A stretch of 34,346 nt of DNA from a virus (Duplodnaviria > Caudoviricetes): positions 1 through 34,346 of IMG/VR virus record IMGVR_UViG_3300027769_000079; one strand, 5' to 3'. Made by a program: the position numbers and the translations under genes. The notes beneath the pieces are model-generated. The model was not told the origin of the DNA and made no database searches. It was given only the letters and a program-made list of their open reading frames with translations. Shown piece by piece: positions 2,018 through 32,596 of the stretch (position 1 is the stretch's first letter; the number at the start of each line of letters is the position of its first letter).

Positions 2018-2798
2018 AATTTTAGCAATTAAAGCAGCAAGCGGATTAGTTAACTTAATGTCTAATAAGCCGATAAGTGGTGCACTAAAAGATAGCACAG
2101 TTGCACAAATATCTGCAGCATTATTTTACAAAACAAATGTGATGGCAAAGCTTGCATCTAATGCACAATTTCAATTAGCATTTAGAAATGTAATATTTGA
2201 TCAGCTTGAAGTTGATTTTGGAGAATATATTGATGCAAAATCAAGAACATCTCCAAAAGCTTTTCACCATGTTTATGAATGGGGTAGAACTGGTCAGGAT
2301 GAAGCAAGATTATTTAAGCTAAACAAATTGCCATCAGACGGCTTATCCCTAAAGGTAAACTACGAACTAACAGATTCTCAATCATTTGTGCCATCTGAAA
2401 ATTCTAATAACAGACATGTATTTGTAAAAAAAGCTTCTGTTATGGAAGAAGGAAAGACTGTAGTTATTGCTCCTAGGTTTTCAGAAAGACTGGTATTTGA
2501 TGTAAGTGGATATACAGTTTTTATGCCCAAAGGACAATCAGTTACCGTAAGAAAGCCTGGCGGAGCGGCAGTTAAAAATTCCTTCTTTTCTGCTTACAGA
2601 TATTTCTTTACTGGCCAGCTAGTTAATATGTCTATAAAAAAATCGGGATTTCAAAGACTATTCAATTCATCTATATCTAGAGCATTAGGAGTACCAGCAC
2701 AAATTAAAACAGTTAAGTACAGCTTCTCGGCAAATCAGCTGGCAAATGAAGCAGAAGCTGCAACATCAGCAGCATTTGCGAGGTTATCAAATGGCTAA
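2007..2798 (+). CDS. Putative neck/tail completion protein
   Basis: Likely TTG start at 2007 with GGAG upstream. FHHVYEWG motif. Lies between head closure and tail terminator positions. Confidence 0.5.
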   Translation: MASEILAIKAASGLVNLMSNKPISGALKDSTVAQISAALFYKTNVMAKLASNAQFQLAFRNVIFDQLEVDFGEYIDAKSRTSPKAFHHVYEWGRTGQDEARLFKLNKLPSDGLSLKVNYELTDSQSFVPSENSNNRHVFVKKASVMEEGKTVVIAPRFSERLVFDVSGYTVFMPKGQSVTVRKPGGAAVKNSFFSAYRYFFTGQLVNMSIKKSGFQRLFNSSISRALGVPAQIKTVKYSFSANQLANEAEAATSAAFARLSNG

Positions 2799-3300
2799 TT
2801 ATAAACTAGATGCAATGTTTGAAATAAGAAAATTCTTATGGAGTAGACTCGCAGCACTTGATATATTTAATGAAGACGACTACTACTCAGATAATTTAAA
2901 TGAGACACTTGTGCCTATTGTTCCAGTCCAGCAACAGCCAGAAATGAATCAATTTTTGAGCGGCAAGAAGCACATAGTCTACGATAAGATAGGAATGTCT
3001 TATGAAAATAACTGGATGATATGCTGCGAACAAATCCTATTAACCCTATATTCACCAGATCTCCTTGATATTGTTGAAATAAGAAACTTCCTAACTGATG
3101 AGTTTAGAAGAATGGATGAGTCTGCCAAGGATGTAAATAGGTGGGCGGGGCTATCTAATAAATTTAAGTTTCATAGCATTCATATAGCAGATATATCATC
3201 TACAGCCCCATCAGAAGAGATCCAAGGATTCTATGCAGCAGATGTAATATTAGAGGTAAAATACTCTAGGATAACTGATGGCAAGGGTAGATTTGCCTAG
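2791..3300 (+). CDS. Putative tail terminator protein
   Basis: ATG 2791 with GAGG upstream, about 169 aa, immediately before the major tail gene. Confidence 0.55.
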   Translation: MANYKLDAMFEIRKFLWSRLAALDIFNEDDYYSDNLNETLVPIVPVQQQPEMNQFLSGKKHIVYDKIGMSYENNWMICCEQILLTLYSPDLLDIVEIRNFLTDEFRRMDESAKDVNRWAGLSNKFKFHSIHIADISSTAPSEEIQGFYAADVILEVKYSRITDGKGRFA

Positions 3301-3301
3301 T

Positions 3302-3330
3302 TTGCCTTTTATTAAGTAATACAGTAAAAT
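3302..3330 (+). promoter_or_regulatory. Putative promoter for major tail gene
   Basis: TTGCCT (3302-3307) - 17 bp - TAAAAT (3325-3330) in the intergenic gap. Confidence 0.55.
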
Positions 3331-3403
3331 TGGAACAGAGGAAAGGGCCTAGCCAGCCAAATAGATATATTAATTTCATATGAAATCAGGAGGCAATACA
3401 ATT

Positions 3404-4165
3404 ATGGCATATCAAAATACAGGAGACGCCCGCAACATTCTTGTTGGCGCATCACCACTATTTTTGTCAGTAGAAGATTCAACAGTATCTGGTTACGATT
3501 CAAGCATGGATGCAGGCGAAGCAAACGCTTTTGTTGCATCAAAGAACCGTTTTGTACCAGCATTCTCATCAGGAGAGTCTTACACTACAACACTAAATAA
3601 AGTTTTAACAACAACAGGTGCTACTCAGACAGCAACGCCTACAGAGGCATCACCAGCAATTGGTGGAGCTTACCGTAACGTTGGTTACACAAATAACGGT
3701 CTACAGATCAGCTACCAGCCAACATTTGACTCAGTAACTGTTGACCAGTTGCTAGATACAGCTAAGCTGTTTAAGTCTGCAATGATGGTTCAGATCTCAA
3801 CAGAAATGGCAGAAGGTACTCTAGAGAACGTTCTTGCAGTATTTGGTCAAAAGGGATCAACACTTACATCAACAGGAACAGGTGCAACAGCAGTTGACAC
3901 ACTAGGAATGGAAGCAGGTGCACTAGGTGCAGCTCCAACAGAGCGTCAGCTAATTGCAGTTGGACAGGCTCCAACTTCAGAAGCATCAGCAACTGAGCGT
4001 GTATATTATGCACGTCGCGTTTTGTCTGTTGAACAGTCACAGTTCTCTTTGGCTCGTACAGCAGCAACAACATTCCCAGTAACATTCCGTCTTCTACCAT
4101 CAGGTGACTCAGCTCACGCTGGTTCAGAATACGGTAAGATTATTGACCGCGTTCTAGCAATTTAA
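3404..4165 (+). CDS. Major tail (tube) protein
   Basis: SD AGGAGG before ATG 3404. Motifs ARNILVGASPLFLS and VGYTNNGLQISYQPTFDSVTVDQLLD. Followed by a terminator, then chaperone and TMP genes. Confidence 0.85.
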   Translation: MAYQNTGDARNILVGASPLFLSVEDSTVSGYDSSMDAGEANAFVASKNRFVPAFSSGESYTTTLNKVLTTTGATQTATPTEASPAIGGAYRNVGYTNNGLQISYQPTFDSVTVDQLLDTAKLFKSAMMVQISTEMAEGTLENVLAVFGQKGSTLTSTGTGATAVDTLGMEAGALGAAPTERQLIAVGQAPTSEASATERVYYARRVLSVEQSQFSLARTAATTFPVTFRLLPSGDSAHAGSEYGKIIDRVLAI

Positions 4166-4272: not shown

Positions 4273-4605
4273 TTGGCAACAACAGTATATGATGTAGAAG
4301 AGATTGAACTACAAAGCGGAGCTAAAGTAAAGCTCAAGCCATTATCAATCAAGCAATTAAGAAAGTTTATGGAAGTAATTAAGAAAGTTCAAGACGCAGA
4401 AGACGAAGCCGCAACACTTGGAATTTTAGTTGAAGCATGTGGAGTAGCGCTAGAAACTCAACTGCCAGACCTAGTTGCTGACCTTGACAAACTTGAAGAT
4501 GCATTGGATGTTCCAACTATTAATAGAATCCTTGAAGTTTGCGGAGGAATTAAGATGGACGACCCAAACCTAATAGCGGCAGCGGTACTGGCTGGCCAGA
4601 ACTAG
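4273..4605 (+). CDS. Tail assembly chaperone (gpG-like, short form)
   Basis: TTG start after AAGGAGG, 110 aa, between major tail and TMP genes. Confidence 0.8.
   Translation: MATTVYDVEEIELQSGAKVKLKPLSIKQLRKFMEVIKKVQDAEDEAATLGILVEACGVALETQLPDLVADLDKLEDALDVPTINRILEVCGGIKMDDPNLIAAAVLAGQN
4563..4569 (+). other. Programmed -1 ribosomal frameshift slippery site C CCA AAC
   Basis: In-phase X XXY YYZ heptamer (codons GAC CCA AAC). The -1 frame is closed at TAA 4551-4553 and open from 4554 to 4940. Confidence 0.8.
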
Positions 4606-4940
4606 ATTTAGCCGCTTTAGAAGGTCAAGTTTTTCTTCTAGGTCACTGGAAGAATTACGAAGAACTAGAAGAAAGTTTATCGCTGCCAGAATTGATTCAA
4701 ACAATTACAGCAATAAATGAAAAAGAGCACAACCAAAGAAAGTTTGCAGCATCACTAAAGGGAATACAGTTAGATGATGATGTGGAAGAAAAAGAAAAAG
4801 GTTCTACCTTTGAAGATATCCAAAGAAGAGCTCTTGGAATTAAAGCATCAGCAGATGATGTCGTTAGTTTGCAAGGACCCTTCGCAGCACAAGCTGGATT
4901 TGGAATCGGAGCAGGATTAGGATACTCTAGGAGTAATTAG
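4569..4940 (+). CDS. Tail assembly chaperone frameshift extension (gpGT-like C-terminal part)
   Basis: The -1 frame reads PNSGSGTGWPELDLAALEGQVFLLGHWKNYEELEESLSLPELIQTITAINEKE... to TAG 4940. It includes the 4692..4940 ORF, which has no evident SD of its own. Confidence 0.8.
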   Translation, partial: PNSGSGTGWPELDLAALEGQVFLLGHWKNYEELEESLSLPELIQTITAINEKEHNQRKFAASLKGIQLDDDVEEKEKGSTFEDIQRRALGIKASADDVVSLQGPFAAQAGFGIGAGLGYSRSN

Positions 4941-7900
4941 TGGCTGACGAACAAATTGTAACCAGCATAGTCGCCAAAGCCGACTTGTCTAGCCTTGTGT
5001 CTGAAGTACACAGGGCTAGTTCTAGTCTCCAACAATTACAAAGAGAGCTGCTTGCATCAAACAAAGCAATATCTTCTTCTACAAAATTAGCAAATAATTT
5101 ATTTAGAGATACATTAACTGGAAGCGGACAGTTCTCAAGCCACTTTGTAAACCTTAATTCTGATGTAGATAAGTTTGGTAAAAATTTAGATTCAGGCAGA
5201 TTAAAGCTTAAGAACTATTTCCAAACATTTAGAGAACACGCCACTACTCAAAAGGGCATGATCAGGGAGCTTGCCAAAGAGCAGGTAATGCTTCAAAACT
5301 CAGTACTTCAGCCGCTAGGTAGAAATGCTCAAGGCTTAATGCAGTACAATGTTATGATTCCTAGAGGACTAGATGCTATAGCAAATAGCGGAAAGTTAGC
5401 TCGAATGGAAATGCAGATTATGAATCGTGCATTATCCGAAGGAGCAGGTTCTTTAATTAACTGGGGTAAGAATACTCAGTGGGCTGGTAGACAGCTAACA
5501 GTAGGTCTAACTGTTCCAATGACTATGTTCGGTGCCGCAGCTGGAAAAGCTTTTAGAGAAGCAGATGCTGAACTAGTTAGATTGACAAAAGTTTATGGTG
5601 GCCTAGCTGCAACCTCAGCAAGTGATTTAAAAGCTATTAGAGAAGAAGTTGTTGAAACGGCAAAAGTTTTATCTAAAACAATGGGTGCATCTTTTAAAGA
5701 TACTATTGCATTGGGTGCTGATATCGCAGCAACAGGACAAACTGGAAATGAGCTTCTAGGATCTATTGCAGAAACAACAAGGCTTGCAGTACTTGGTGAA
5801 GTTGATAGACAAGATGCAATGAAAGCAACGTTATCTATTCAAACAGCATTTAAACAAAATACTCAAGAACTTACTGAATCAATTAACTTCCTTAACGCAG
5901 TTGAAAACCAAACCTCAACAACTCTTAATGACCTGGTAGAAGCAATTCCAAAAGCTGGGCCAGTAATTCAGCAACTAGGCGGAGATGTTAAAGATCTGGC
6001 TTTATATTTAACAGCAATGAGAGAAGGCGGTATTAGCGCATCAGAAGGTGCAAACGCACTGAAGTCTGGACTAGCCTCTTTGATTAACCCAACAAAACAA
6101 ACTGTCGGAATGATGTCGGATTTTGGAATTGATGTAATGGGAATGGTTGCTAGAAATACTGGCGATACAACTGGACTTCTAATGGATTTGCAAAAAGCAT
6201 TAGACTCACTTGATCCATTAAGCAAAGCAAGAGCAATGGAACAAATGTTTGGAAAGTTTCAGTTTGCAAGAATGAGCGCACTACTTAATAACTTAGGAAA
6301 ACAGGGAAGCCAGACGCTTCAAGTTTTAGATTTAATGAAAGCGAGCACAGCAGATCTTGCAGATGTAGCAAGCCGAGAATTAAAAATGGTTACAGAGTCT
6401 GCATCTGGTAAATATAAAAGAGCTATTGAAGGTCTTAAAGCAGAGCTTGCAGATGTTGGAGAAGAGTTCTTAGGAGTTGCAACTAAGCTTATAACCGCAG
6501 CGTCAAAAATATTAGATTTCTTTACTAGATTACCAGACCCAATCAAAAAAGGATTAACATTCCTTGCTGGGTTTACTGCATTAGTCGGACCACTTATTAT
6601 GTTAACTGGTGTACTTGCAAACTTCTTTGGTTATATAACTAAGGGTGTTGTTCAGTTAAGAGCATTCTTCATGAAAGCAAATGGCTGGAAGATGCTTACC
6701 CCAGAAATTATTGCTGCTGAAAAAGCAGCTCTTATGGTTGAGAATGCATTCTACTCAGATGCAGCAGCAGCTCAAGTTCTTCACAATGCTCTACAAAAAC
6801 TTGTTTTAGATTATCAAAATCTCCAAGCTGCATCTATGAAAAATGCAGTACCAGTTAATCCAGGAGTAAGCACAGTTGCTGGTTCACCAGTAATGGTTGG
6901 CGGAAGAAGAGTCGTTGATCCTAACGATCCATATGTTGGAGACCCTAATACTAGAGCCATGTCTCATATTAGACCAAGAGATATAAATAACCCAGCAACA
7001 ATATTTGGCGGTGTACCAGGAGCAATTCCAGTTAATAGAGGAATATCAAGAACTCCTCAAATGTATATGCAAGATAGACTTCCAAACATTGAAGGATTAA
7101 CAAGCGTAAAGGGAATATCAACAGGAATTGTTTCAGGTGAAGCAGCTAAATTCCATGCGCTGATGGCAACACTAGGAATGCAAACAGAGCAAGAAGTTGC
7201 TACATTAAAGAAAACTATTGCAATGGGCGGAACAGTTAGCAGAGAGCTTCTAGACACATTTGATGACATACTTCCAATAACTCAAAGATTTGCAGAGAGT
7301 GCAGCAACACAGTCAGCTTTAATTGTTCAGCAAATGAGAAATGCCGAAATAACTGTTGATCAAGCAAAAGCAAGGATACTTGCACTTAATGCACAAATAG
7401 AAACAGATATGGGATCAGCAGTAAGCATGTATGCTGCTGGACGAGGAAGAACAATTGATTTAACAAGAGCTCCAATGATGGATCAACCAGTTGTTGACGC
7501 TAATGGACAATTTACACTTAGAGATTTGTATAAGAAGAAAGCAAATGCTTCTGTTATGGAAGAGTTTGGAAGACTTCGCGGCGTAAGAACATTTGGAGCA
7601 CCTTATAGTATTCAGACAACTAGAATGCCTAAATTTAATATTGGTGGAGATGTAGAGTCATTTGGTCCAGGAAAGACTATGGTGTCTGGGCCATCTTCAA
7701 TTAACTATGATGACAGACTGGGAAGCGTTCCTCTAGGAGGGTATGTTTTAAATCAGCAAGCTTCGATGGATCCAGCAAATGCTGCATTAGTTGAGATGGC
7801 TCCGTCTACCTACTTAAATAATGGTGGAAACATTACTGCAGCGCTTACCCCACGGGAAGTCGTTTTTGGCCCTGAAATTCAAAGAATGCCTGAGCTTTAT

Positions 7901-10900
7901 GCAGCAGTAGATGCAGCCAACAACGGATATAGTTTTGGCGGGCAGATCATGCGTGGCATTAATTCATACGGAAAAGAAATGTCTAAGTCTGCTAAGGCTA
8001 GAATGAAAGAAGAAAACTTTAAAAGACAGTATAGAGAGTATCTAAAGTTTATCAATAACCCAAGATACGAAGATGATATAAGAATAAGAATGATCATGCT
8101 TGACGCAGCTGAATTATCTTATGAGCGTAATTTGCCAATTGATAAAGCTATAAATATTGCAACAAGTAACTTTGATTTAGCTAAAGCCCAATCTGGTGGA
8201 AACGATGAGAATTTTGTAAAAATAAGAATTAAGCAAGTGCAGGGGCTAGAAAGAGACGGCATGGTTCCCCGTGTTAAAGATGCAGAAAATTCTCCAAGAA
8301 GCGGTAGCAAAGCTTTAAATTATCAATTAAATGACGTTAGAGAAGCAATGCTAAAGAATAAAAAATTTGCTGGTGTGCATGATCTTATATCAGCAGTTGC
8401 TCCAACAACATTTTTAAATGACGACGGTTCTCCATCTATTAAAGGCTTGCACGATAAGGCACATTTTAGACGTAAAGATCTAGTTGGATATACAACTAGT
8501 GGGTACATGGGAGTTGCTGCTGTATTGCCTTCTGGTATAAATAATATCATGAGCATACTTGAGGGAATAGGTTTATCAAGAGATGTTTTAAATTTAAGTG
8601 CAGATGATGCAAGAGAAAACCTCGCAGTAGCATTAAAGAAAACAGGTTTAGACAAGCTTGCAAACGTAGATGACATATATACAGCTTTGCAAGATGATGG
8701 ATTATTTAAGAGTAAGGCTCAGATTGCATCTGGAAATGTGGTAAGGGCAAATAAGGATCAAAGAAAATCTTTAAGCATGCTTTTAGAAGCTGCAGCAAAA
8801 AGATCAAGGTGGGTATTTGCTGGAAGGCCTCCAAGACCAATGCTTGTAGCGGGAGCATACAATAAGGGCGGAATGATTCCAGGAGGATCAATATCTAGAA
8901 GTAGATCTAACTATGGAAACATATCACCACTATTAAAATTAATAGCACCAGATAAGCAGCTAAAGATCTTGCAACAAGCTCGTGAAATGTCAAAGGCTAC
9001 AGCAACTGGATCTTATAAGGACATGCCTCCTGTTAAATATGGACACATGGTTACCCCAAGCTCTGGAATGAGTTATCCGATACCTGGTGTTTCTGGCTTG
9101 TACAAAGATAGTGATGGTCGACTTAAGTTCTTTAAGGGTGTTCCAAATGAGATATCTGCCAGGGCTGAAGTGTATGGAACCAGAATGGCTAGAGAAGTAT
9201 TTGGTCTTGATGCTCCTGAGCAAACAATTAAAACAATAGCAAACCCATTAGACCCAACTGGAAAATCAAAGCTACTTGGTGTTGAATCCCCGTTTGATAA
9301 AAAGTTTACTACTGGTGGAACAGTCTTTTCAGAAGATGAAATGATTAGGCAAACAATTGCATCTTTAGTTATGAATAATAAAGATTTATCTCCAAGCAAT
9401 GTCTACGGAAATGTTTTAGCAGATGTCGGAGCAGCAGGAGTATTCTCTAAAGCCTCAGCTAACACAGCACACGCAGACTCTCTTCCTTCTATGATAGATC
9501 AAGCTATGATAAATCTACTTGGAGTTAAGGGCGGAGCTAGAAAAGACTTTGCAGTAAATACTGCTCCAATTGCTGCAGGAATGACAGCTAAGCAGTATAA
9601 CAGAAAAATAAAATCCGCAATGAAAAAAATGCATCCAAAACTTATTAAGTTTGTTGCAACGTTGCCAAGAGAAGACAGAGCTCCATATATCAAATTGCTA
9701 CAAAGATTTGAACAGGGCATGGATGATGCAACGGACTTCGGTCCGCTGCATGCAGTTCATGTTGCAGCTAAAAGAAATAGCGGAGGCCCAATTGGTGGAG
9801 GCCCAGTTAGATCAGGAAGATATGCCTATGGCGCTAAGAATAAAAAGGGTTCACAGAGGTCAGGAAACCCAGCTAAAAGAGCTCAGGATGAAAGATCCAG
9901 AGCGGCAAGAGCTGCCTCCTATAGCACTCCATCTGGTTCTGGCTATACAGCTTCAGATAATCCTCAGATGCAAGTGCAAAGAGCTCCTTATGTTGGTGGA
10001 TCTGGAATTTCTGGAAACGCATTTGGGGCAATTCAAAATCAACAATCTCAGCAGTATATTAACGCATTGCAAGTTTCTCAAATTGGTCAGCTTCCAGCAG
10101 GCATATCAAGAGCCTTTGATTCTTTAACTAAAACAATTGTATTAAAAACAACAGGGTTAAGATATGGAATTACAAGTTCTGTTCCTTATATTAATGAAGC
10201 TTACTCTTCTTTTACAAGAGGAATAATAAATTCTTCAAAACAGCAATCTGCAAAACTTTCTAACTATGTACAAACGCAGACAAGGGATTTAAAAGCAGGC
10301 ATATTAAGAGAGCAAGCAGTCAGAACAAATGCAGCATATCCAGGTATGAATATGCCAGTGTCTATGTTTGGTCCTGGAATGGTAGGAGAATGGCAAGATA
10401 TTGGACAAGATGGAATCAGAAGTCGTAAGGTAGGAGCACTCGGATATAGACAACGCGAGTACATGCTTCCTGACGGAACCATCCTTGATTCAAATGCTGC
10501 TAAAGCAAAAGGAATTTCAGCTCCTAGAGGAGGAATGGGAATAGGCGCCCAGATGGGCATCGGTATGGCTGGTAACATGGCTGGAATGTACTTGATGCAA
10601 CAACAAGAAATATTTGGAATGAAAGGGTCAAACGTAGGACTTGGCGTAATGGCTGCATCCAGCATAGCTCCAATGGTTCCTTATGCAAGAATGGGAAAGG
10701 CAGCCAAAGACGCTAAGAATTACGTAGCAGCGTTAATCGCAGCAGGTCTTACAGCTAAAGAAGTTATTTCTGCGCTTCTTGCCAAAGGATTAAGCATAGC
10801 AAAAATGTTGGGCTGGGTTGGTAAGGTCGTAGCTGTTGTAGCAAGTTTAGCTATGGCTTATAAGAATGTTAAGGATCGACAGCAAGATGCTGCCATAAGC

Positions 10901-13900
10901 CTTTCTACAACAGAAAAAGCTGCAGAACAAGCTGGATTTAAGTATGTAAGCCTAACGGACAAAATTCAAACATATTTAGATAAACAAAAATTAGCAGCAG
11001 AATCAGCAAAAACAGGATCAACAGCTTCATTTTCAATGCCTGGTATTCCTAGATCTGTAGAGGACATGAAGAAGGCTAAGAAAGAGGGCGAAGGTCTTAA
11101 AGATCTAATTGAATCTCTTAACCGAGCAGCCGTCGGAGAAGAAACTCAAATGATGATTAACAACCAAAAAGCACAAATGGTTGCAGCTGGAATGAGCATT
11201 GAAGAGGCAAACAGAAAAATTTACGGTGCTTTGGCAAATAGCAATAAAGCTCAACAAGCATACAAATATCTAGCAGATGTTCAATTTGGAGGAATTAAAG
11301 ACAAGGCTTCTGCCGCACAAGTTGCAGTTGGAAATTTAGTTTCAGTATTGGCTAACCCAAGCTCCACAGGACAAGAAATTTCATATGGGTTTGAGGGTCT
11401 TATTAATACATTTGATGCAGCAACATCTAGTCTTATAGGTACAAAAGATGCTATGGGAAATGTTATAGATGAGTATGAAGCTTATGGAATTGTTATGTCT
11501 TCTGCAGAATCCAAGTTTCCATCTTTTGGAAATGAGCCAATAGGTACAGAATCTTTTAGAGCGCTTTCAGAAGCTCAGCCCTTGCTAGCTGATATTTCAA
11601 ATAAATCTGATAGCATAAAAGGAATATTGGCAAAATGGAAACTATTTACTTCTGGAATAAATATAGATCTTAAAAATATTGACTCTACTTTAGCAATTAA
11701 GCTAGCTGGATTTACTCAGGCAATTGGAACAGGAATTTCTGAGCTAACCGCTGCTGCTGATAATGCAACTACATACGGAGCAACTGGAGCAGCACTAGCT
11801 AAATTACAAAAAGTAATTTCTGCAACTTCTGCTGCCTCACAAAGAGCAGCAGCTGCCTCTCAAAGAAGCGCACAAGAAGAGCTAAAATTAATTGCTAAAA
11901 AAATTAAGCTTATTGATGATGAAAAGAATAAAAAGTTAGAATCTTTAAGAGCAACTCAAGACGCATCTAATTACGCACTAGAGTTACAAAAACTTCAGAT
12001 ACAATATCAAGATGCCTTGTCTCGTGGAGATATGGCTGCTGCAAACAGAGCTCAACTAGAGATAGATCAGCTTACATCAAATAGACAATCTGAATTGGCT
12101 CAAAAAGCAATAGAAGATGCGGCAGCAAGAGCTAAGGCTCCACTAGAAGCAGATGCTTTAGCAATTTCTAATGCACAAGATCGAGCAGCAGCATCAGCTG
12201 CAGCAGGTCAAGATAATGCTGCGGTAGCAGGTGAGATTACTGCTACAATTCAAAAGCTACAAACAAGATATAATGATCTTACAACAATGGCACTCAATGC
12301 AAAAGTTCTTCCAGAAAAAGAAAGATTGGCTCAAGAGTCTGAGGTTAGAAGACAACTTATTATACTTGTTCAGGAAATGCAGAAAGCTGGTACTGGATCT
12401 AGCCTGCTTGCTAAAACAGTAAGAGATGCATTCCCAGGATACTTTGATGCAAATGGAAAACCATTAGCTCCAGTTTCAACATTTACTGGATCTCCAAGAG
12501 GATTTAACCCTGATGGCACACCAATTCTTTCAACAAACACTGTAACCAATAACAGCGCACTAACTCAATTTAATAAAGATATTGCAGCTGTAGAAAAACT
12601 AGCTTTAGGAATTACAGGCGGAATGACTATTAAGCAATTAGCTGCAGACATTGCTAAAAGCCTAGGTGTTAGTGATATTAGAGCTAAGAATCCTATTGGT
12701 TCAGGAACTTCAACTTCAACAAAAATTGCTGCAATAACTGCAAAAGATGGAAATGCAGCAGGATCTGCTGCTTTAAAATTGGGTTCTCAAACAAGACAAT
12801 TTACTTTACCAGATGATCCTTATAGAAAGTACTCAGTATTTACATATAACGGAAAGACATATGCTATAGATCCAATTAGCGGATCGATATTTAATTTTGA
12901 TTCTAGCAACAACATATTAGGATCTGTAGTTAAAGACAGAAAAAAAATGTATACTGGTGGAAAAGTTTCTGGTCCAGGAACTGCAACATCAGATTCAATT
13001 CCAGCAATGCTTTCAGATGGAGAATATGTATTTAGTGCAAAAGCTGTAGATGCCGCTGGAGGACCAGATGTTGTTGACAACTGGCACAAAGCACTTAGAA
13101 GAGCAGATGGTGGACCAGTCTACCCTTCATGGAAAAAGCCAAAGTCTGCATACAACTCTAAGAATCAACCTACTGGAAGTCCTTACGGAAGATACTGGGG
13201 AGAATTAGAAAGACTATATCAAAGCTCACCAATCGGTTTTGATAAAAATGGAAAGCCTATATTTAATAATGCTGGAAAAGATCCATGGGGCGGAGTAGAG
13301 ATACCAGGACTTCCATTTAGTGGCAAGGTGGGACAGTTCTCAGATTACTGGCATCAGCTAGCAGAGCAACTAAGAAAGTCTAGCGGTCCTGGAATGGGCA
13401 TCGATAAGTCTACGCCACCACTAGTTGGATCGGGTGCATCTGCTTGGACTGGAGGCTTACTAGGAGGCGGCGGAGGCGGCATGCTTGGATATGCAGATGG
13501 AGGCCTGGTTAAGGGACAATCCGCATGGTCTAAGGTTATGCACACTGCAATGAAGGCGATAGACCCATTTAAATTTGGTAAACATAGTTTAGGATATAAT
13601 TTCTTAGGCGGAAAAGAAATTGCAAATGTATTTTCTGGAACTGGGAAAAAGTCAGACTACCTATCTGCAGCTCTAGCACCACTTGGAGGATTTGGAAGAG
13701 GGGCAGCAAAAGCACCAGGTGCTATATCAAAACTTACATCTGAGATGAAATCTTTCCATATGTCAGATATTGATTCTAAGGCCATGAATGCTTTATCAAA
13801 TATGGATCTATCCTCAATTAGAATTCCAGAAACAGGTATTAGCTTTAGTCCAGCATCAGCTAAAGCTGGTTTAGAAGCATTAAAAGAAGGGGTTACATCA

Positions 13901-16195
13901 TCCTCTGCTTGGGAAATTGTTCAAGCACAAAGAGAAACATTATTAAAGAATAAATATCCAAAAGTTGATCTATCTGATGTAGCAAAATTTAATGAGTATT
14001 ACGCAAAAGAATTTTACGGCTTGCTTCCAGATGATTCTATTAAATTATTTAAGGGAGTAAGAAGCACAATAGGAGGCGCTTGGAGAACTGGAGAAAAAGA
14101 TCTAGCAACTTATTTCTCCACTAACCCACATGTAGCCGCCCTATACAGTGCAATGATAGGCAAAGCAAAGCTTGGCGATGAACTTCCAATGTTTGCAATT
14201 GATAGAAGGATATCTGATCTTAGAAATTTCTTGGGTGAAGGTGCTGTAAGAAATGGAAATGCACAGGGAAGCATGGAGTTTCCACAACTTCTTGGAGGGA
14301 AAGATTTATCAGATGTTCTTCCTAGTATGTATTCTTTGCCAGGACAAGTTTATGGTCAGATGTTTGGTGGAGCAGCAACATCATTAACAAAAATAAAAAA
14401 TTTGTGGCCAAAAGGTTTCCACGAAGGTGGTTGGGTGCACGCACATCCTCATGAGACCTCATGGAAACAGCATGTTCCAAATTATGAAAGCAGTGGAGGA
14501 CCAGGCTCTTACAATTCATCATTAGGTAAAGGCATGTTTGATGGATTCTCCATACCCTGGCTAGATTCTTTAGGTGTTAAAGGAATACACCAAACCTTTA
14601 ATAAAATTTTTCAAGGTGGAAAAAATAAAGGTATAAATGATGCTTACTCATCTTCTCCAAATAAAGGAGACTATGCAAATGCAGCTTTATTCCCTCTCAA
14701 CTTTGCTGGAATGGGAATAGGCAAAAAATTTGCGTCAATGGGAATGCGGCAAAACCTTGCTAATCTTCTGGGAGGAACAAAGCTCCCAGGCCAAATACCA
14801 AATCAAATTTATGAAAGCGCAATAGAAAAGGGTATAAGGCTAGAAAAAGGCGAAACTGGAGTAAATGAAACCTATCGCGCAATTTTAGACGGAGTTAGTG
14901 GTTTCTATAAACCTCAACTTGGAAACATGGAAACCAAAAGAGAAATGTTTGGCTCTATATTTTCTAGGGCACTCGGACTTCTTGCCCCTGCTAATGTACC
15001 AGTTGTTACAGGAAACTTCTTGAGACCAGGTGGAATATTTAGTCCAGATGTGGCAGCTCAGGGTGGTTCACTTTTAAAAAATATAAAAGGATCTACTACT
15101 GGTATATTTGGAGAGTATGATAAGCTTTCATCTGTTGAGGAGGCTATTTCAAGCGGGTATAGAGCAGCAATGATGTCTGCTATGAGATATGTAGATGGTC
15201 ATGATGGAAATTTAGTATTAAATCCAATCACAAAACAGCCAGGTCTTATAGATTTTGGAATGATTTTAGATTTTTATCCAAAAGGAGCTGGAAGCTTCAT
15301 CCCCTCCATGTTTTCGCCACTAAGACAACACGTTCCAAATTTAGTTGATGCAGTTGCTGACCCAAAAAGACAAGCATTTTTTGAGGGTTTGCTAAAAGCA
15401 AAAGATGTATTGTCTGGCTTGTCTAGATCAGACATTAAGGATATGTTAAAATCTGCTGGATATAAAGGAATAGATCTTAATAAAAAATTAAAAATTGTAA
15501 CAAATAGCATTAAGGATACAGTTAATGCAATGCCATCTGCAGTTGATGACGCTCTATTTGATGTACCAGATGCTCCATCGTGGCCTAGCAATGCCATGAT
15601 TGGTCCTGATGGTAAGATTACATTAGGTAAAGGCAAAAAGGGATTACAGCCTAATATCAGCGCACCATCAATAAAGGGATTCCCATCATTTGACACCCTA
15701 TTCAAAACACCAAAGGGATTCCCATCTATTAGCAGCTTGCCAAATTCCATTAAAAATGTACGCAATCTGTGGAGCACCCCAAAAGAAGTAACAGGTACTG
15801 GATGGAGTGACGTAGCAGGAAAAATAATATTTGACAGCAGTACAATTAACCCAGTGGTTAAGAATATACGCAAGCTGTGGAATGCTAAAGGATTCTCCGA
15901 AGGTGGACCAGCAAATGCTTTATCAAACCTTGGAGTCCCAATGTTTGAAGATGGAATTAATATGGTTCCTGCAAATATGCTGGCGCTGCTTCATAAAAAT
16001 GAAGCAGTTGTTCCAGCTAACATGAACCCATTTAATCCAAATGCATCAGCGGCTGTATCTGGTTCAGTGTATAATATTAATGTAGAATTAAATGGAACAA
16101 CAGTGACGGCAAAAGATGTTGCACTAGAAATACGTAATGAGATGAGAATTAAAGAAATGGCAGCGGGAGTAAATAGAACGGTGGGCAGATCATGA
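4940..16195 (+). CDS. Giant tape measure protein (3751 aa) with embedded kinase-like and ART-like cargo domains
   Basis: Directly after the chaperones. TP901-type TMP region (FLNAVENQTSTTLNDLVEAIPKAGPV...GANALKSGLASL), hydrophobic segments, Ala-rich coiled coils and the C-terminal GPGTATSDSIPAMLSDGEYV motif. Confidence 0.93.
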   Translation: MADEQIVTSIVAKADLSSLVSEVHRASSSLQQLQRELLASNKAISSSTKLANNLFRDTLTGSGQFSSHFVNLNSDVDKFGKNLDSGRLKLKNYFQTFREHATTQKGMIRELAKEQVMLQNSVLQPLGRNAQGLMQYNVMIPRGLDAIANSGKLARMEMQIMNRALSEGAGSLINWGKNTQWAGRQLTVGLTVPMTMFGAAAGKAFREADAELVRLTKVYGGLAATSASDLKAIREEVVETAKVLSKTMGASFKDTIALGADIAATGQTGNELLGSIAETTRLAVLGEVDRQDAMKATLSIQTAFKQNTQELTESINFLNAVENQTSTTLNDLVEAIPKAGPVIQQLGGDVKDLALYLTAMREGGISASEGANALKSGLASLINPTKQTVGMMSDFGIDVMGMVARNTGDTTGLLMDLQKALDSLDPLSKARAMEQMFGKFQFARMSALLNNLGKQGSQTLQVLDLMKASTADLADVASRELKMVTESASGKYKRAIEGLKAELADVGEEFLGVATKLITAASKILDFFTRLPDPIKKGLTFLAGFTALVGPLIMLTGVLANFFGYITKGVVQLRAFFMKANGWKMLTPEIIAAEKAALMVENAFYSDAAAAQVLHNALQKLVLDYQNLQAASMKNAVPVNPGVSTVAGSPVMVGGRRVVDPNDPYVGDPNTRAMSHIRPRDINNPATIFGGVPGAIPVNRGISRTPQMYMQDRLPNIEGLTSVKGISTGIVSGEAAKFHALMATLGMQTEQEVATLKKTIAMGGTVSRELLDTFDDILPITQRFAESAATQSALIVQQMRNAEITVDQAKARILALNAQIETDMGSAVSMYAAGRGRTIDLTRAPMMDQPVVDANGQFTLRDLYKKKANASVMEEFGRLRGVRTFGAPYSIQTTRMPKFNIGGDVESFGPGKTMVSGPSSINYDDRLGSVPLGGYVLNQQASMDPANAALVEMAPSTYLNNGGNITAALTPREVVFGPEIQRMPELYAAVDAANNGYSFGGQIMRGINSYGKEMSKSAKARMKEENFKRQYREYLKFINNPRYEDDIRIRMIMLDAAELSYERNLPIDKAINIATSNFDLAKAQSGGNDENFVKIRIKQVQGLERDGMVPRVKDAENSPRSGSKALNYQLNDVREAMLKNKKFAGVHDLISAVAPTTFLNDDGSPSIKGLHDKAHFRRKDLVGYTTSGYMGVAAVLPSGINNIMSILEGIGLSRDVLNLSADDARENLAVALKKTGLDKLANVDDIYTALQDDGLFKSKAQIASGNVVRANKDQRKSLSMLLEAAAKRSRWVFAGRPPRPMLVAGAYNKGGMIPGGSISRSRSNYGNISPLLKLIAPDKQLKILQQAREMSKATATGSYKDMPPVKYGHMVTPSSGMSYPIPGVSGLYKDSDGRLKFFKGVPNEISARAEVYGTRMAREVFGLDAPEQTIKTIANPLDPTGKSKLLGVESPFDKKFTTGGTVFSEDEMIRQTIASLVMNNKDLSPSNVYGNVLADVGAAGVFSKASANTAHADSLPSMIDQAMINLLGVKGGARKDFAVNTAPIAAGMTAKQYNRKIKSAMKKMHPKLIKFVATLPREDRAPYIKLLQRFEQGMDDATDFGPLHAVHVAAKRNSGGPIGGGPVRSGRYAYGAKNKKGSQRSGNPAKRAQDERSRAARAASYSTPSGSGYTASDNPQMQVQRAPYVGGSGISGNAFGAIQNQQSQQYINALQVSQIGQLPAGISRAFDSLTKTIVLKTTGLRYGITSSVPYINEAYSSFTRGIINSSKQQSAKLSNYVQTQTRDLKAGILREQAVRTNAAYPGMNMPVSMFGPGMVGEWQDIGQDGIRSRKVGALGYRQREYMLPDGTILDSNAAKAKGISAPRGGMGIGAQMGIGMAGNMAGMYLMQQQEIFGMKGSNVGLGVMAASSIAPMVPYARMGKAAKDAKNYVAALIAAGLTAKEVISALLAKGLSIAKMLGWVGKVVAVVASLAMAYKNVKDRQQDAAISLSTTEKAAEQAGFKYVSLTDKIQTYLDKQKLAAESAKTGSTASFSMPGIPRSVEDMKKAKKEGEGLKDLIESLNRAAVGEETQMMINNQKAQMVAAGMSIEEANRKIYGALANSNKAQQAYKYLADVQFGGIKDKASAAQVAVGNLVSVLANPSSTGQEISYGFEGLINTFDAATSSLIGTKDAMGNVIDEYEAYGIVMSSAESKFPSFGNEPIGTESFRALSEAQPLLADISNKSDSIKGILAKWKLFTSGINIDLKNIDSTLAIKLAGFTQAIGTGISELTAAADNATTYGATGAALAKLQKVISATSAASQRAAAASQRSAQEELKLIAKKIKLIDDEKNKKLESLRATQDASNYALELQKLQIQYQDALSRGDMAAANRAQLEIDQLTSNRQSELAQKAIEDAAARAKAPLEADALAISNAQDRAAASAAAGQDNAAVAGEITATIQKLQTRYNDLTTMALNAKVLPEKERLAQESEVRRQLIILVQEMQKAGTGSSLLAKTVRDAFPGYFDANGKPLAPVSTFTGSPRGFNPDGTPILSTNTVTNNSALTQFNKDIAAVEKLALGITGGMTIKQLAADIAKSLGVSDIRAKNPIGSGTSTSTKIAAITAKDGNAAGSAALKLGSQTRQFTLPDDPYRKYSVFTYNGKTYAIDPISGSIFNFDSSNNILGSVVKDRKKMYTGGKVSGPGTATSDSIPAMLSDGEYVFSAKAVDAAGGPDVVDNWHKALRRADGGPVYPSWKKPKSAYNSKNQPTGSPYGRYWGELERLYQSSPIGFDKNGKPIFNNAGKDPWGGVEIPGLPFSGKVGQFSDYWHQLAEQLRKSSGPGMGIDKSTPPLVGSGASAWTGGLLGGGGGGMLGYADGGLVKGQSAWSKVMHTAMKAIDPFKFGKHSLGYNFLGGKEIANVFSGTGKKSDYLSAALAPLGGFGRGAAKAPGAISKLTSEMKSFHMSDIDSKAMNALSNMDLSSIRIPETGISFSPASAKAGLEALKEGVTSSSAWEIVQAQRETLLKNKYPKVDLSDVAKFNEYYAKEFYGLLPDDSIKLFKGVRSTIGGAWRTGEKDLATYFSTNPHVAALYSAMIGKAKLGDELPMFAIDRRISDLRNFLGEGAVRNGNAQGSMEFPQLLGGKDLSDVLPSMYSLPGQVYGQMFGGAATSLTKIKNLWPKGFHEGGWVHAHPHETSWKQHVPNYESSGGPGSYNSSLGKGMFDGFSIPWLDSLGVKGIHQTFNKIFQGGKNKGINDAYSSSPNKGDYANAALFPLNFAGMGIGKKFASMGMRQNLANLLGGTKLPGQIPNQIYESAIEKGIRLEKGETGVNETYRAILDGVSGFYKPQLGNMETKREMFGSIFSRALGLLAPANVPVVTGNFLRPGGIFSPDVAAQGGSLLKNIKGSTTGIFGEYDKLSSVEEAISSGYRAAMMSAMRYVDGHDGNLVLNPITKQPGLIDFGMILDFYPKGAGSFIPSMFSPLRQHVPNLVDAVADPKRQAFFEGLLKAKDVLSGLSRSDIKDMLKSAGYKGIDLNKKLKIVTNSIKDTVNAMPSAVDDALFDVPDAPSWPSNAMIGPDGKITLGKGKKGLQPNISAPSIKGFPSFDTLFKTPKGFPSISSLPNSIKNVRNLWSTPKEVTGTGWSDVAGKIIFDSSTINPVVKNIRKLWNAKGFSEGGPANALSNLGVPMFEDGINMVPANMLALLHKNEAVVPANMNPFNPNASAAVSGSVYNINVELNGTTVTAKDVALEIRNEMRIKEMAAGVNRTVGRS
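15673..15881 (+). repeat. Short direct repeats near TMP 3' end
   Basis: AAAGGGATTCCCATC exact at 15673-15687 and 15712-15726. A 24-mer with 21/24 identity at 15750-15773 and 15858-15881. Confidence 0.85.
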
Positions 16196-21270: not shown

Positions 21271-23376
21271 ATGGCTGGCAAATACGATGATTTAGGAATT
21301 ACTCAAACTAAAGACGGAGATTACTATGACGTCATTATTCCAAACTTAAATCTAAGTACAGAGTATGAGCTTCAAGTTGCTTGGGTGTATGCAGATAAAA
21401 CTTTAGGTATTAGCGAGTATTCAGACCCTTATACATTTGTAACGACAGGTGAGCAGCCATTAAATAAACCAAGATTTCTTCAATCTGATTTGACTACATC
21501 TTTAAATGCGCTTATTGTTAATTGGTCTGGGCTAGATTACCTAGGCAGCGTTTACCCAAAAAGTTTTGATAGAGTTGACATATATGTAAAAGGTGGAGAT
21601 TTTGGAAACACTTATGTTGTTGCTGGAAGCTTTAAAGAAGCTGGCAAGCAAACAATTATTGCACAGGCTGGAACATATTATGTAAAACTAAGAGCAGTAA
21701 GCAAGCTTGGAACCCCATCAGATTTTAGCGATGAGTGGTCAGCAGATACTTCTAATCCAGGAGAAGTTATTGAGCCCCCAACTCTTCCAATTGGACTAAC
21801 AGTCTCAAGCACTGCATTTGGAATTTCTGTAAACTGGAATGGTGCATACCAAGCAAATGATCCTTTTTCTGGATTTAAAACAATTGAGGTTTATGCAACA
21901 ACAAATGCAACATTAGGCGCTAGTACAACTACAGCATTTGCAAGTACAGCACTGGTAGCAAATTTAACAGTAACTCAATCTTTAAATAGACAAAATGTTG
22001 GAATTGATAATCTCAAGCAGGCACTAGGACTTGCAACATCTGAAGCAGTTTATGCAGCAAATGTTTATTTTTATTACATAGCATACAACAAAAATAACGA
22101 GCCTTATAAAGTTGGCGGTGTTGCAACATACACTCGGATTAGTGCAACTCCTCTGTCTCCAACCAAAGCTAACTTAATTGATTTAGAAAACGGAATTATA
22201 TCAATTGAAAACTTAGTTGCTGGAAATGGAAAGTTTACTTCATGGCTAAGAGCAGGATCAGATGTTGGTGGAGCACGAATAGAATTAAATGGTGGGAGCA
22301 GCTTTGCAGATGGGGCAACTGGAAGATCAATACTAGATGGATTTACAGTATATAGTTCTGGCAATAGTCCAATATTTAGAGCAAGCACAACAAGCGGAAC
22401 CGTAACTTTTGGTGGGTATACACCATCAGATATTGCTACAATACAATCAACAGCTACATCAAAAACAAAAATATTTAGGCAAGCAACAACCCCAACTTCA
22501 ATTACAATCGGAGATTTATGGATTAATACTGCAGACACTACAATTGGTAGAAACACAATATATGTTGCTACAATGGTTGGAGCAAACTCAATAACAACCG
22601 ATCCAACACCTGGTTGGAATGTTTCAAAAGATAGCGACATAACTACAGCTTTATTAAAAGCTGGCGGGTTTGATTCAAATGGAAATATTAATAGAGCCAT
22701 TCAGATTCCAACTCCAAATGGCACTTCAGCAGGATCAATTTATTCTGTAAAAAGCTCTTATACAGATACAACATCAGGATGGTTCCTTGGATGGGATGGA
22801 ACCTCTGTAAATAGCTCTCCAGTAATACACATAGGAAATTTAAATAACTGGTTTAAGTGGACAGGTTCTGCAATAGATGTTAAAGGATCATTTACTACAA
22901 CTGGAACCCAGTCTGGCCTGCTTGGTGGCACTACTAATTTAACTACAACTTTAAGCGCTGGTAAATTATCATTATCTTCAGATCAGACAACTGGTTTTAT
23001 GGATTGGGCAAATGCTGCTGTGCTAGGAGTTTCAAGCACAGACTCTAAAGCAACTATTTCCCCTGCTGGAATAGCAATCTCACATACTGGATTGTCTTCT
23101 GGGTTTTCCATTTCTTATGTTCCAGGTGGCGGATACGCAAACATTATTGTGTCTGGGGGCGGTTCTCCACTAATTAGATGGGTTAATTATCAAGGCAGCG
23201 AAAGAACTGCAAACTTAATGCTAGGGGATATTGCAAATAGACCACTAGTTGTTACAGATCAAGGCCTACAGTATCTTGGAGCACAAAATTATTATACAAA
23301 TTCCTCTTCAGCAACCATGGCTACGGCTACATGGGGAGTAGATGGAGATTTAGCTTTTAGTACGAATGCGAATTAG
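21271..23376 (+). CDS. Tail fibre/minor tail protein with FN3-like domains
   Basis: 701 aa. FN3-like motifs (NLNLSTEYELQV; GTYYVKLRAVSKLGTPSDFS), KIFRQATTPTSITIGDLWINT motif, Ser/Thr/Gly-rich. Confidence 0.7.
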   Translation: MAGKYDDLGITQTKDGDYYDVIIPNLNLSTEYELQVAWVYADKTLGISEYSDPYTFVTTGEQPLNKPRFLQSDLTTSLNALIVNWSGLDYLGSVYPKSFDRVDIYVKGGDFGNTYVVAGSFKEAGKQTIIAQAGTYYVKLRAVSKLGTPSDFSDEWSADTSNPGEVIEPPTLPIGLTVSSTAFGISVNWNGAYQANDPFSGFKTIEVYATTNATLGASTTTAFASTALVANLTVTQSLNRQNVGIDNLKQALGLATSEAVYAANVYFYYIAYNKNNEPYKVGGVATYTRISATPLSPTKANLIDLENGIISIENLVAGNGKFTSWLRAGSDVGGARIELNGGSSFADGATGRSILDGFTVYSSGNSPIFRASTTSGTVTFGGYTPSDIATIQSTATSKTKIFRQATTPTSITIGDLWINTADTTIGRNTIYVATMVGANSITTDPTPGWNVSKDSDITTALLKAGGFDSNGNINRAIQIPTPNGTSAGSIYSVKSSYTDTTSGWFLGWDGTSVNSSPVIHIGNLNNWFKWTGSAIDVKGSFTTTGTQSGLLGGTTNLTTTLSAGKLSLSSDQTTGFMDWANAAVLGVSSTDSKATISPAGIAISHTGLSSGFSISYVPGGGYANIIVSGGGSPLIRWVNYQGSERTANLMLGDIANRPLVVTDQGLQYLGAQNYYTNSSSATMATATWGVDGDLAFSTNAN

Positions 23377-23379
23377 CAT

Positions 23380-28160: not shown

Positions 28161-28348
28161 TGATGAAGTGTCAAAAATGCAATGGCAGGGTTTTTATAGA
28201 TAGAGTATTTTCTCAAAAATTACATATGGAAATGTTTTGCGTGATGTGCGGGAAACGATGGATGATTAATAAAGATACGAGCCCACTAGGAAAATGGTTA
28301 GAGAAATTAGAAAAAGCAAAAGAAAAAAGCTTAGCTATTTCTTCCTAA
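28157..28348 (+). CDS. Small zinc-ribbon protein
   Basis: CQKC...CVMCG; ATGA overlap with the upstream gene. Confidence 0.7.
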   Translation: MMMKCQKCNGRVFIDRVFSQKLHMEMFCVMCGKRWMINKDTSPLGKWLEKLEKAKEKSLAISS

Positions 28349-28776: not shown

Positions 28777-28883
28777 TGTCAGGTAGAGTTGTAGTTTGTG
28801 ATATATGTAAAAAAGAAATAGAATTACGTTGGGGCATTTTTGCTCATGACAGTTTAAGTAGGCATCGGAAGGCGGAGCACTAA
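28776..28883 (+). CDS. 35-aa C2H2 zinc-finger-like microprotein (not in ORF track)
   Basis: GTG 28776: MSGRVVVCDICKKEIELRWGIFAHDSLSRHRKAEH*. One-base overlaps with both neighbours (TAGTG, TAATG). Confidence 0.7.
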   Translation: MSGRVVVCDICKKEIELRWGIFAHDSLSRHRKAEH

Positions 28884-31856: not shown

Positions 31857-31896
31857 ACAGGCGAATATATATCGTCAATATAAAAGGAGAATACAA

Positions 31897-32571: not shown

Positions 32572-32596
32572 CAGAGAGCATAGGCGGAGAATTAAG

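Follow-up and report, generated by a model that had tools for sequence, protein, structure and literature searches.

The window, i.e. the complete stretch of 34,346 nucleotides analysed here, stems from a virus record that is 29% complete. On its plus strand it holds an open reading frame (ORF) of 3751 amino acids (aa), initially annotated as a tape measure protein (TMP). This identity is confirmed by a PF10145 domain in aa 240-438 (E 9.7e-27, 94.6 bits vs. a Pfam cut-off of 33.2), by a match to the TMP family PHROG 10030 (E 2e-119) and by the gene order: the ORF lies 3' of a tail tube gene (PF25681, E 2.7e-5, under the Pfam cut-off) and two small chaperone-like genes, and 5' of tail-tip/minor tail genes. 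The same gene order surrounds the TMP of Streptomyces phage Angela. The frame is long and helical, with PF10145 in a single copy in its own record as well as in each of five near-complete relatives. Its nearest cultured matches are Streptomyces phage TMPs with 30-34% identity over about 600 residues.

The ORF is thus a PF10145 TMP of an uncultured siphophage, the host of which is probably a freshwater actinobacterium, because WhiB is present in all five near-complete relatives tested (110-117 kb) and because the runs with the cassettes are from freshwater. WhiB is used as a marker for actinobacterial hosts in PMC6802176. Nine runs contain at least half of the slot 2 stretch (see below), all of them freshwater metagenomes, of which eight are possibly the source itself; runs with small shares (X10-X24) are excluded from this count. 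Relatives of the TMP scaffold are absent from prokaryotic genomes in GTDB contigs, and no prophage or host was found there. The gene comprises the following features:

4940..16195, plus strand: TMP gene, 3751 aa (ORF call, PF10145, PHROG 10030, gene order)
4940..7633, plus strand: N-terminal scaffold, aa 1-898 (PF10145 at 5657-6253; aa 150-900 73-100% identical in 120 homologues)
6560-6616, plus strand: hydrophobic, membrane-spanning-like stretch of the N-scaffold, aa 541-559 (hydropathy)
7634..7939, plus strand: left fence of slot 1, aa 899-1000, a pair of degenerate GG...GE-V TMP elements (sequence; conserved in the identity map)
7946..8854, plus strand: module A, aa 1003-1305, helical bundle and beta-beta-alpha unit with His1175/Asn1201 (secondary structure of the model, motif)
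8858..9775, plus strand: kinase 1 cassette, aa 1307-1612, predicted fold in 1345-1612 (structural match, motifs)
9776..10519, plus strand: basic, low-complexity and poorly conserved stretch, aa 1613-1860 (sequence and identity map)
10520..12946, plus strand: second helical scaffold, aa 1861-2669 (identity map)
10724-10852, plus strand: hydrophobic helices of the second scaffold, aa 1929-1971 (hydropathy)
12947..13099, plus strand: left fence of slot 2, aa 2670-2720, the GG...SDSIPAMLSDGEYV element in its full form (PHROG TMP families)
13100..13489, plus strand: Trp/Pro-rich module of 130 aa (cluster C5, 21 copies in 109 split proteins)
13490..13732, plus strand: leader 1, aa 2851-2931, amphipathic/hydrophobic, here before the ART-like domain
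13733..14416, plus strand: ADP-ribosyltransferase (ART)-like domain, aa 2932-3159 (model fold, motifs)
14417..14770, plus strand: leader 2, aa 3160-3277, with GG motif, H-x-H and hydrophobic Gly-rich end (sequence comparison)
14771..15574, plus strand: kinase 2, aa 3278-3545, predicted HipA/PI3-PI4-kinase-like (language model, motifs)
15575..15892, plus strand: Pro-rich trailer of the kinase 2 cassette (module M49)
15893..16195, plus strand: terminal cap and right fence of slot 2, aa 3652-3751, containing a GG motif and an L-H-K-N-E-A-V element and closing with a helix (PHROG, identity map, splitting of relatives)

An assembly chimera as the source of this array is ruled out: contigs of other runs bridge the cassette junctions at 13490, 14417 and 15893 with zero differences.

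Scaffold and slots among relatives

A search with aa 150-900 as query yielded 4044 matches at E <= 1e-20 among 7988 candidates scored. The best 120 of these, with the window's own protein included (73-100% identity, 2477-4576 aa), were examined, and 63 IMG/VR loci plus seven loci found through cassettes were compared in addition. The identity map against the relatives has steps at about aa 1000, 1310, 1615, 2720, 2850, 3160 and 3655. Two clusters of non-TMP-like modules, noticed earlier from the sequence, are indeed foreign to the scaffold, as both diverge or vanish in relatives whose aa 150-900 remain 73-100% identical. As to their former limits (about aa 900-1860 and 2720-3650), aa 899-1000 consist of TMP element copies and aa 1613-1860 are low-complexity sequence. 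We delimit slot 1 to aa 1000-1612 and slot 2 to aa 2721-3651. None of the window's cassettes reaches a Pfam or PHROG cut-off.

The two slots behave differently, slot 1 being kept and slot 2 freely refilled among relatives. Module alleles of slot 1 recombine, and its whole replacement is rare, restricted to more distant proteins (P0106, P0108, P0109 and P0119, besides the loci L066 and L069); two such replacements carry an R-S-E-type ART-like domain there, by motif reading only. Slot 2 is empty, i.e. has <200 residues after its left anchor, in 58 of the 112 homologues with a findable left anchor (eight without anchor were dropped) and filled with 200-1837 aa in the other 54. These 54 show 43 different module strings, although clustering may over-split them. 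Single relatives illustrate the switching: P0002 tracks the window up to aa 2850 and P0122, at 96%, up to aa 3179, both diverging thereafter, and P0017 shares just the end of kinase 2. Kin share modules and breakpoints, so that all such counts overstate independence. The expected exchange of modules on a conserved scaffold is free in slot 2 only, slot 1 keeping its kinase in 116 of 120 homologues.

Contents of the slots

Slot 1 opens with module A. In the model, its His lies at the end of strand 1 and its Asn in the helix, as in the His-Me finger arrangement. The Asn is found in 100% of 119 distinct sequences and the His..Asn pattern in 116 of 120; in the other four the His is visible by eye. 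Relatives possess D-R-G-H or E-H-x-x-P at the His site. The motif makes module A a possible His-Me (HNH-like) nuclease. It has neither a Pfam nor a PDB profile match, and a homologue search among proteins of 150-578 aa returned four unnamed matches without Pfam domains. Module A was folded jointly with kinase 1, which fills the list of the fold search, so the missing fold match of module A is uninformative.

Kinase 1 is, according to the model, clearly a bilobed atypical kinase fold of the CtkA/CotH/MavQ/PI4K/HipA type. The model covers aa 1003-1612 and was built from 33 sequences (mean pLDDT 72). Its VIA matches are CtkA (Z 10.5, rmsd 4.3, 195 residues aligned), CotH (Z 10.3), MavQ (10.0), PI4KII (9.3) and HipA (9.1), and Foldseek likewise finds CtkA (prob 1.00, E 7.5e-3). 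Protein and lipid kinases tie in these lists. All of 24 sequences compared, the most divergent of them at 36% identity, have K1399, E1410, D1482, N1487 and D1495, and the catalytic motifs are kept in 116 of the 120 homologues. The catalytic loop reads K-D-L-S-x-S-N without the usual His. Among 50,697 records of cultured phages kinase 1 has zero matches.

The first module of slot 2, 130 aa long and rich in Trp and Pro, usually occupies this first position in relatives as well, is duplicated in P0002 and gave nothing in Pfam. It is followed, after leader 1, by the ART-like domain, which is probably an ADP-ribosyltransferase-fold domain. The motifs comprise an F-K-G strand (K3038), Y-F-S-T-N-P and Q-G-S-M-E (E3113), i.e. 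a triad K-Y/S-E with Lys at the first catalytic position, rather than H-Y-E or R-S-E. In a family of 16 sequences the Glu is invariant, and F-K-G and Y-F-x-T-x-P are present in at least 90%. The model (pLDDT 81) points weakly but uniformly to ART folds: 42 of 50 VIA rows are ARTs by title, over model residues 93-206. Scores stay under the trust level of the tools, with a best Z of 5.3 and Foldseek E >= 0.17 (E > 0.1); against BFVD the matches are mostly unnamed proteins (best E 3.6e-3). Among 1.84 billion representatives all 16 matches are TMPs or pieces of TMPs; two of these are complete TMPs whose scaffolds are 34-38% identical.

Kinase 2 is likely a HipA-like kinase, as predicted by a language model (Atlas) and motifs. 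Atlas places it at 0.94 to HipA_2 (76% of the cluster) and PI3_PI4 (38%), with recognition 2872. K3324, E3335, D3419-G-H-D-G-N and D3438-F-G include an intact D-x-H-x-x-N and D-F-G, and these motifs are invariant in four of four sequences. In Pfam, ABC1 reaches only E 0.12. Searching proteins of 497-2000 aa with the kinase 2 alignment gave no homologue, a negative that the tool rates as weak evidence. Profile searches of both kinases against PDB sequences gave only unrelated matches, and a profile comparison of kinase 1 with kinase 2 is not significant (prob 0.8%). The Pro-rich trailer also stands behind a different kinase in L011. Of the enzyme domains noticed at first, kinase 1 is hence backed by its model fold, kinase 2 by language model and motifs, and the ART-like domain by the weak but uniform fold evidence above; enzyme folds do occur in the array.

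Purifying selection acts on the cassettes. The dN/dS is 0.15-0.22 for module A, 0.11-0.13 for kinase 1 and 0.14-0.35 for the ART-like domain (three pairs each), 0.62 for kinase 2 (one pair) and 0.05-0.06 for the N-scaffold (3 pairs). These ratios bear on the idea that the cassettes are captured, mostly inert filler which changes the tail length or rides neutrally between repeats. The many empty copies of slot 2 would suit such filler, as would the tandem duplications and 8-13-aa stubs between GG motifs that occur among relatives, and the deviation of kinase 1 and the ART-like domain from canonical catalytic signatures. Nevertheless we judge it most improbable, with dN/dS well below 1 in module A, kinase 1 and the ART-like domain, with catalytic residues that stay invariant beside neighbours diverging to 36-50% identity, and with whole domains, not fragments, being exchanged between distant phages.

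Slot 2 of the relatives contains further enzymes. Typing of 120 modules by motif, a set enriched for ART by the search and with some modules carrying two types, gave CHAP (43), HExxH (37), ART-like (22), GNAT (10), kinase (5) and unassigned (7). Pfam confirms CHAP, LysM, OmpA and Phage_lysozyme2 in this cargo, and GNAT stays below cut-off. The commonest cassettes, CHAP wall amidases and HExxH peptidases, are partly a known kind of TMP cargo. From these sequence assignments, the TMP family is predicted to use the ruler as a carrier for shuffled protein-modifying enzymes. The window's array is without a peptidase of its own.

Fences, crossovers and leaders

Judged by its matches, the GG...SDSIPAMLSDGEYV form at aa 2670-2720 is a common TMP element. 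It matches the PDB TMPs 8zdo (two copies) and 8rk3, among four PDB matches. With aa 2651-3751 as query 81 cultured phage records match, and among the matches listed (40 of 81) all cover only aa 2670-2720. Both aa 899-1000 and the terminal cap resemble worn copies of the GG...GE-V element; clearer copies are found at the place of aa 899-1000 in L065, L067 and L069, and the C-terminal end of the Angela TMP is similar to the window's cap. Each slot thus appears to sit between copies of an ordinary TMP element, of which the inner GG motifs are probably remnants or shrunken copies.

Plain [FY]xxGG occurs seven times in the TMP against 2.2 in shuffles (10 of 2000 shuffles reach 7). A wider GG pattern, fitted afterwards on relatives, occurs nine times against 0.8 in shuffles (maximum 5), whilst 102,000 residues of N-scaffold contain it a single time. 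Homology breakpoints, of which 808 were taken from 58 proteins with filled slot 2, lie within <=10 aa of a GG motif in 136 cases, compared to 57 +/- 7 at random (maximum 84 in 2000 draws), a 2.4-fold excess in counts inflated by shared ancestry. Contents therefore vary, and breakpoints are related to the motif. The earlier proposal that a repeated xxGG bounds each module was too strict: the motif is enriched, but the match at aa 1456 falls within kinase 1 and is no boundary, and 83% of the breakpoints lie elsewhere. A second crossover site, between the hydrophobic leader and the enzyme, accounts for part of these.

DNA-level repeats at the GG motifs were absent from the 20 largest of at least 60 repeat families, and BLASTP gave no alignment between two GG motif flanks. 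GG homology is short and mainly found between phages. The motif probably acts as shared homology for crossovers, and perhaps as a folding or cutting mark. Lambda gpH is absent among the four PDB matches of the GG...GE element; since its cut site is stated as unknown (PMC12617516), the GG motif cannot be tied to cutting.

Exchange also reaches beyond close relatives. L065 and L066 share DNA identity with the window from aa 2932, the end of the leader, to aa 3157-3160, the next GG (82% and 78%). The N-scaffolds of L066 and L069 are only 53-55% identical to that of the window in protein. The ART cassette moves between distant phages, because its DNA is 78-82% identical between phages with so divergent scaffolds.

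Cassettes of slot 2 start with GG, often followed by H-x-H, and then possess a leader of 60-130 aa ending in a hydrophobic Gly-rich helix. Leaders are exchangeable: one family is joined to HExxH (6), kinase (1), GNAT (1), ART (1) and an unassigned module (1), and leader 1 precedes an HExxH peptidase, not an ART, in P0016. The leaders were also considered as PT-TG pre-toxin domains on account of a likeness; for 15 leaders Pfam gave no such match, nor any other pre-toxin family (PT-VENN and HINT being further known ones) at E <= 10.

Median hydrophobicity is 1.3-1.7 in leaders of kinase, ART and GNAT cassettes (n=33) and 0.91 at the start of CHAP cassettes (n=40), kin not being independent. CHAP without and kinase, ART and GNAT with a hydrophobic leader would fit a division in which wall enzymes remain outside and enzymes in need of a cofactor are carried up to the membrane or through it. 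This difference is pertinent to a narrower role, in which active cassettes leave the tail but act on the envelope only, with no wider host takeover or anti-defence: CHAP and HExxH would cut the wall, and the kinases would act on membrane lipids or envelope proteins beside the DNA channel, helping entry. Actinobacteria have phosphatidylinositol, and in the structural comparison of kinase 1 the lipid kinases MavQ and PI4KII score on a par with CtkA and HipA. The predominance of CHAP and HExxH, the Pfam-confirmed CHAP, LysM, OmpA and Phage_lysozyme2 domains and the muralytic metallopeptidase T5 pb2C (PMC10038345) agree with that role. We nonetheless regard it as unlikely, as ART, GNAT and the possible nuclease require cytoplasmic cofactors or substrates, as many unrelated enzymes in one slot suit conflict better than a fixed entry step, and as the non-CHAP cassettes have the leader that CHAP cassettes are without.

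Proposed delivery and comparison with known systems

The explanation that we favour, and hold to be reasonably probable, is a TMP with two slots of enzyme-fold cassettes that are swapped by recombination, likely stored in the tail, delivered before the DNA, and modifying molecules of the actinobacterial host. TMPs leave the tube at infection and form a DNA channel (PMC12617516, PMC10038345). The cassettes would lie in the tail with the ruler, the chain being extended in the tube and refolding on exit. Slot 2 would exit first, and leaderless CHAP cassettes, in relatives that have them, would open the wall; enzymes that depend on ATP, NAD or acetyl-CoA would reach or cross the membrane by means of the hydrophobic leaders of slot 2. 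Slot 1 is flanked by two hydrophobic stretches, aa 541-559 and 1929-1971, which may span the membrane, as suggested by hydropathy. Leaderless and with a kinase and a candidate nuclease, slot 1 would then face the cytoplasm while attached to the DNA channel, like the polymerase of P23-45. Delivered cassettes would modify host proteins, lipids or nucleic acids and so secure the infection. Toxic domains may be kept unfolded until ejection, which would explain why no immunity gene was found next to the TMP.

The proposal of a role at ejection contends with one in which the cassettes act late in infection within the cell that makes the phage, or once tail assembly has clipped them off the ruler, the fusion setting timing and dose only; they might then serve as virion proteins in their own right, block superinfection, or poison grazers feeding on infected cells. 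Assembly of lambda and T5 includes a cut close to the C-terminus of their TMPs, gpH and pb2 (PMC12617516, PMC10038345), the HExxH peptidases of many relatives might cleave the TMP chain, freshwater phage ARTs have been proposed to act as a Trojan horse (PMC6802176), and up to 1837 extra residues in the tube would greatly lengthen the tail. Yet the cut pieces of lambda and T5 remain in the virion, the window's array lacks a peptidase, and the GG motif, as stated, is not linkable to cutting. Toxic enzymes folded in the producer would moreover require immunity genes. No cognate immunity gene lies directly 3' of the TMP: about 550-580 bp separate it from the large tail-tip gene, in the window and in empty and filled close relatives alike, so that this spacing is unaffected by cargo; in the window the interval contains one 194-aa gene, where Angela has a minor tail gene. 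Orphan cassettes are equally absent from five near-complete relatives searched with two cassette sets, matches occurring in three of the five and each lying within the TMP frame. On these grounds we hold a role in the producing cell, or one that follows cutting, to be distinctly unlikely.

Delivery at ejection can be extended to a bolder reading, which we put forward tentatively as possible: the freshwater actinophage TMP would be a programmable multi-effector injector, a system of two tiers with element-fenced slots and exchangeable leaders that take kinases, ADP-ribosyltransferases, acetyltransferases, peptidases and nucleases through the host membrane prior to phage gene expression, from a pool shared by distant phages. 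If so, the load would cost near-identical phages tail lengths that differ by hundreds of nm, and a new route of pre-emptive anti-defence as well as a new protein-translocation signal would be at hand.

To our knowledge, TMPs have been treated as rulers and DNA channels with at most wall hydrolases as cargo. The present family of thousands of sequences (4044 matches, of which the best 120 were examined) carries enzymes that Pfam does not detect. If delivered, these would strike first at the abundant actinobacteria of freshwater and provide a list of candidate enzymes against host defences, including TMP-restricted ART and kinase families. Natural empty and filled TMPs on 90-99% identical scaffolds make it testable whether all TMP length counts for tail length, and allow asking how much folded cargo a non-contractile tail delivers. 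As a rule of thumb, each TMP residue adds about 0.15 nm of tail, which would amount to roughly 420 nm for 2800 aa and 560 nm for 3751 aa. The slots also suggest where a siphophage tail tolerates inserted proteins.

The polymorphic enzyme array in the TMP is well supported as real. In open-access full text, with subscription papers and supplements outside the search, no description of a TMP-borne shuffled effector array was found; TMP-fused wall hydrolases and one TMP-fused RNA polymerase are already published. Mycobacteriophage TMPs possess wall-hydrolase-type motifs. In such wall-hydrolase TMPs the cargo lies near the C-terminus between the GG...GE element and the terminal cap, as in slot 2 here, and the CHAP, LysM and lysozyme cassettes of the window's relatives are of this cargo type. 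The Angela TMP (gp56) has the same terminal slot, filled with a wall hydrolase (M23). It belongs to the same protein class as the window's TMP, as does T5 pb2, whose muralytic part pb2C is thought to refold and digest the wall (PMC10038345). While this known cargo acts on peptidoglycan, the present array has kinases, ARTs, GNATs and a possible nuclease in the family, and a second slot in mid-chain.

The best precedent for cytoplasm-acting cargo on a TMP is gp96 of P23-45 (PMC10770324), a giant TMP that is full-size in virions and carries an RNA polymerase on the cytoplasmic side besides membrane and metallopeptidase domains. In the account of PMC10770324 it has one conserved N-terminal transcription enzyme, in contrast to several internal cassettes varying between near-identical phages here.

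The kinases and the ART-like domain differ from known enzymes as well. CtkA, CotH, MavQ, PI4KII and HipA have the fold of kinase 1 and likely that of kinase 2, and Tpt1/KptA, RES, diphtheria-toxin and PARP-type ARTs weakly that of the ART-like domain, at a sequence identity of 8-16%; compared to these, kinase 1 and the ART-like domain have non-canonical catalytic positions.

An organisation like that of polymorphic toxins had also been suggested. The shuffling agrees: polymorphic toxins, MuF included, likewise combine a conserved delivery part with swappable effectors and a conserved pre-effector segment at the swap point (Zhang et al. 2012, PMC3482391), a paper in which the word "tape" is absent from the first 300,000 of 357,715 characters. 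The membership does not agree. In the window the effectors are internal, several in series and capped, instead of a single toxin at the extreme C-terminus, and the target is probably the phage's own host. Because the cassettes are internal and serial, the spacing 3' of the TMP is constant with cargo and orphan copies of two cassette sets were not found in five near-complete relatives, the TMP is not a polymorphic toxin system.

By analogy, the known system closest in its working to the window's TMP would be a phage polyvalent protein, here incorporated in the ruler. In polyvalent proteins a single large chain associated with the virion unites several protein-modifying domains of unrelated kinds (ART, kinase, GNAT, peptidases, wall hydrolases); their injection along with the DNA is predicted, and recombinational variation has been suggested for them (Iyer et al. 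2017, PMC5512222). The main text of that paper does not contain the term "tape measure". Named polyvalent-protein Pfam domains (ART-PolyVal, LPD, MPTase-PolyVal and others) are absent from the window and from the relatives' cargo searched; Atlas points weakly (0.85) to a cluster of which 19% is ART-PolyVal. The window's kinases keep their C-lobe, unlike the kinase described in PMC5512222. Biochemically unrelated effector folds are nonetheless joined in one TMP chain, kinases and an ART-like domain in the window with GNAT, HExxH and CHAP added by relatives, and the ART, kinase, GNAT and peptidase classes are those that typify virion-delivered polyvalent proteins (PMC5512222). What sets the present array apart from them is its carrier, a tail ruler in which two slots have fixed positions, the fence is repeated and leaders can be exchanged.

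Probable recent exchange and tandem duplication in slot 2

The HipA-like kinase 2 in slot 2 of the tape measure protein (TMP; window 14771-15574) diverges from that of the related locus L012 with a dS of 0.14, against 0.66 for the helical scaffold of the same pair, which suggests that kinase 2 was exchanged recently. Its dN/dS of 0.62, obtained from this one pair (window vs L012), may mark diversifying substrate contacts. Short slot 2 segments bounded by the repeated [FY]xxGG motif (GG) are tandemly duplicated in the related TMPs P0002, P0011 and P0017 and in that of locus L064 (TMP aa 2980-3113); these near-perfect duplications point to recent unequal crossing-over.

Cargo and empty slots of relatives

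The distant TMP of locus L069 (L069:1217-12676) has a scaffold identity of 53%. According to motif reading, its slot 2 carries CHAP-LysM, the Trp/Pro-rich 130-aa module, the ART-like domain of the window, a different kinase and an H-Y-type ART, and its slot 1 an R-S-E-type ART. The related TMP P0116 possesses an OmpA-family peptidoglycan-binding cassette in slot 2 (Pfam match), and a stretch in slot 2 of P0136 resembles it by eye. The empty slot 2 has a conserved end of its own. Relatives in this state (e.g. L019, L038 and L061) retain three GG stubs, spaced 13 and 8 residues, followed by a terminal cap that is shorter and lacks the L-H-K-N-E-A-V element.

Genes flanking the TMP

4273-4940, two chaperone-like ORFs preceding the TMP
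21271-26157, a pair of tail-fibre-like genes, both long (701 and 925 aa)
27360-34346, a block of replication genes: metallo-phosphoesterase family, DnaB helicase, primase, SSB and DnaE-type polymerase III alpha, the last incomplete, extending past the window end (34346)

Neither tail-fibre-like gene has a PHROG match; the second (925 aa) contains a weak match to CBM_5_12, and GC skew dips at 23.5-26 kb. Judged by sequence, this is likely a swapped receptor-binding region. Upstream of the TMP, the heptamer CCCAAAC occurs at 4563, close to the 3' end of the first chaperone-like ORF, where it is a candidate for the frameshift site typical of tail chaperone genes.
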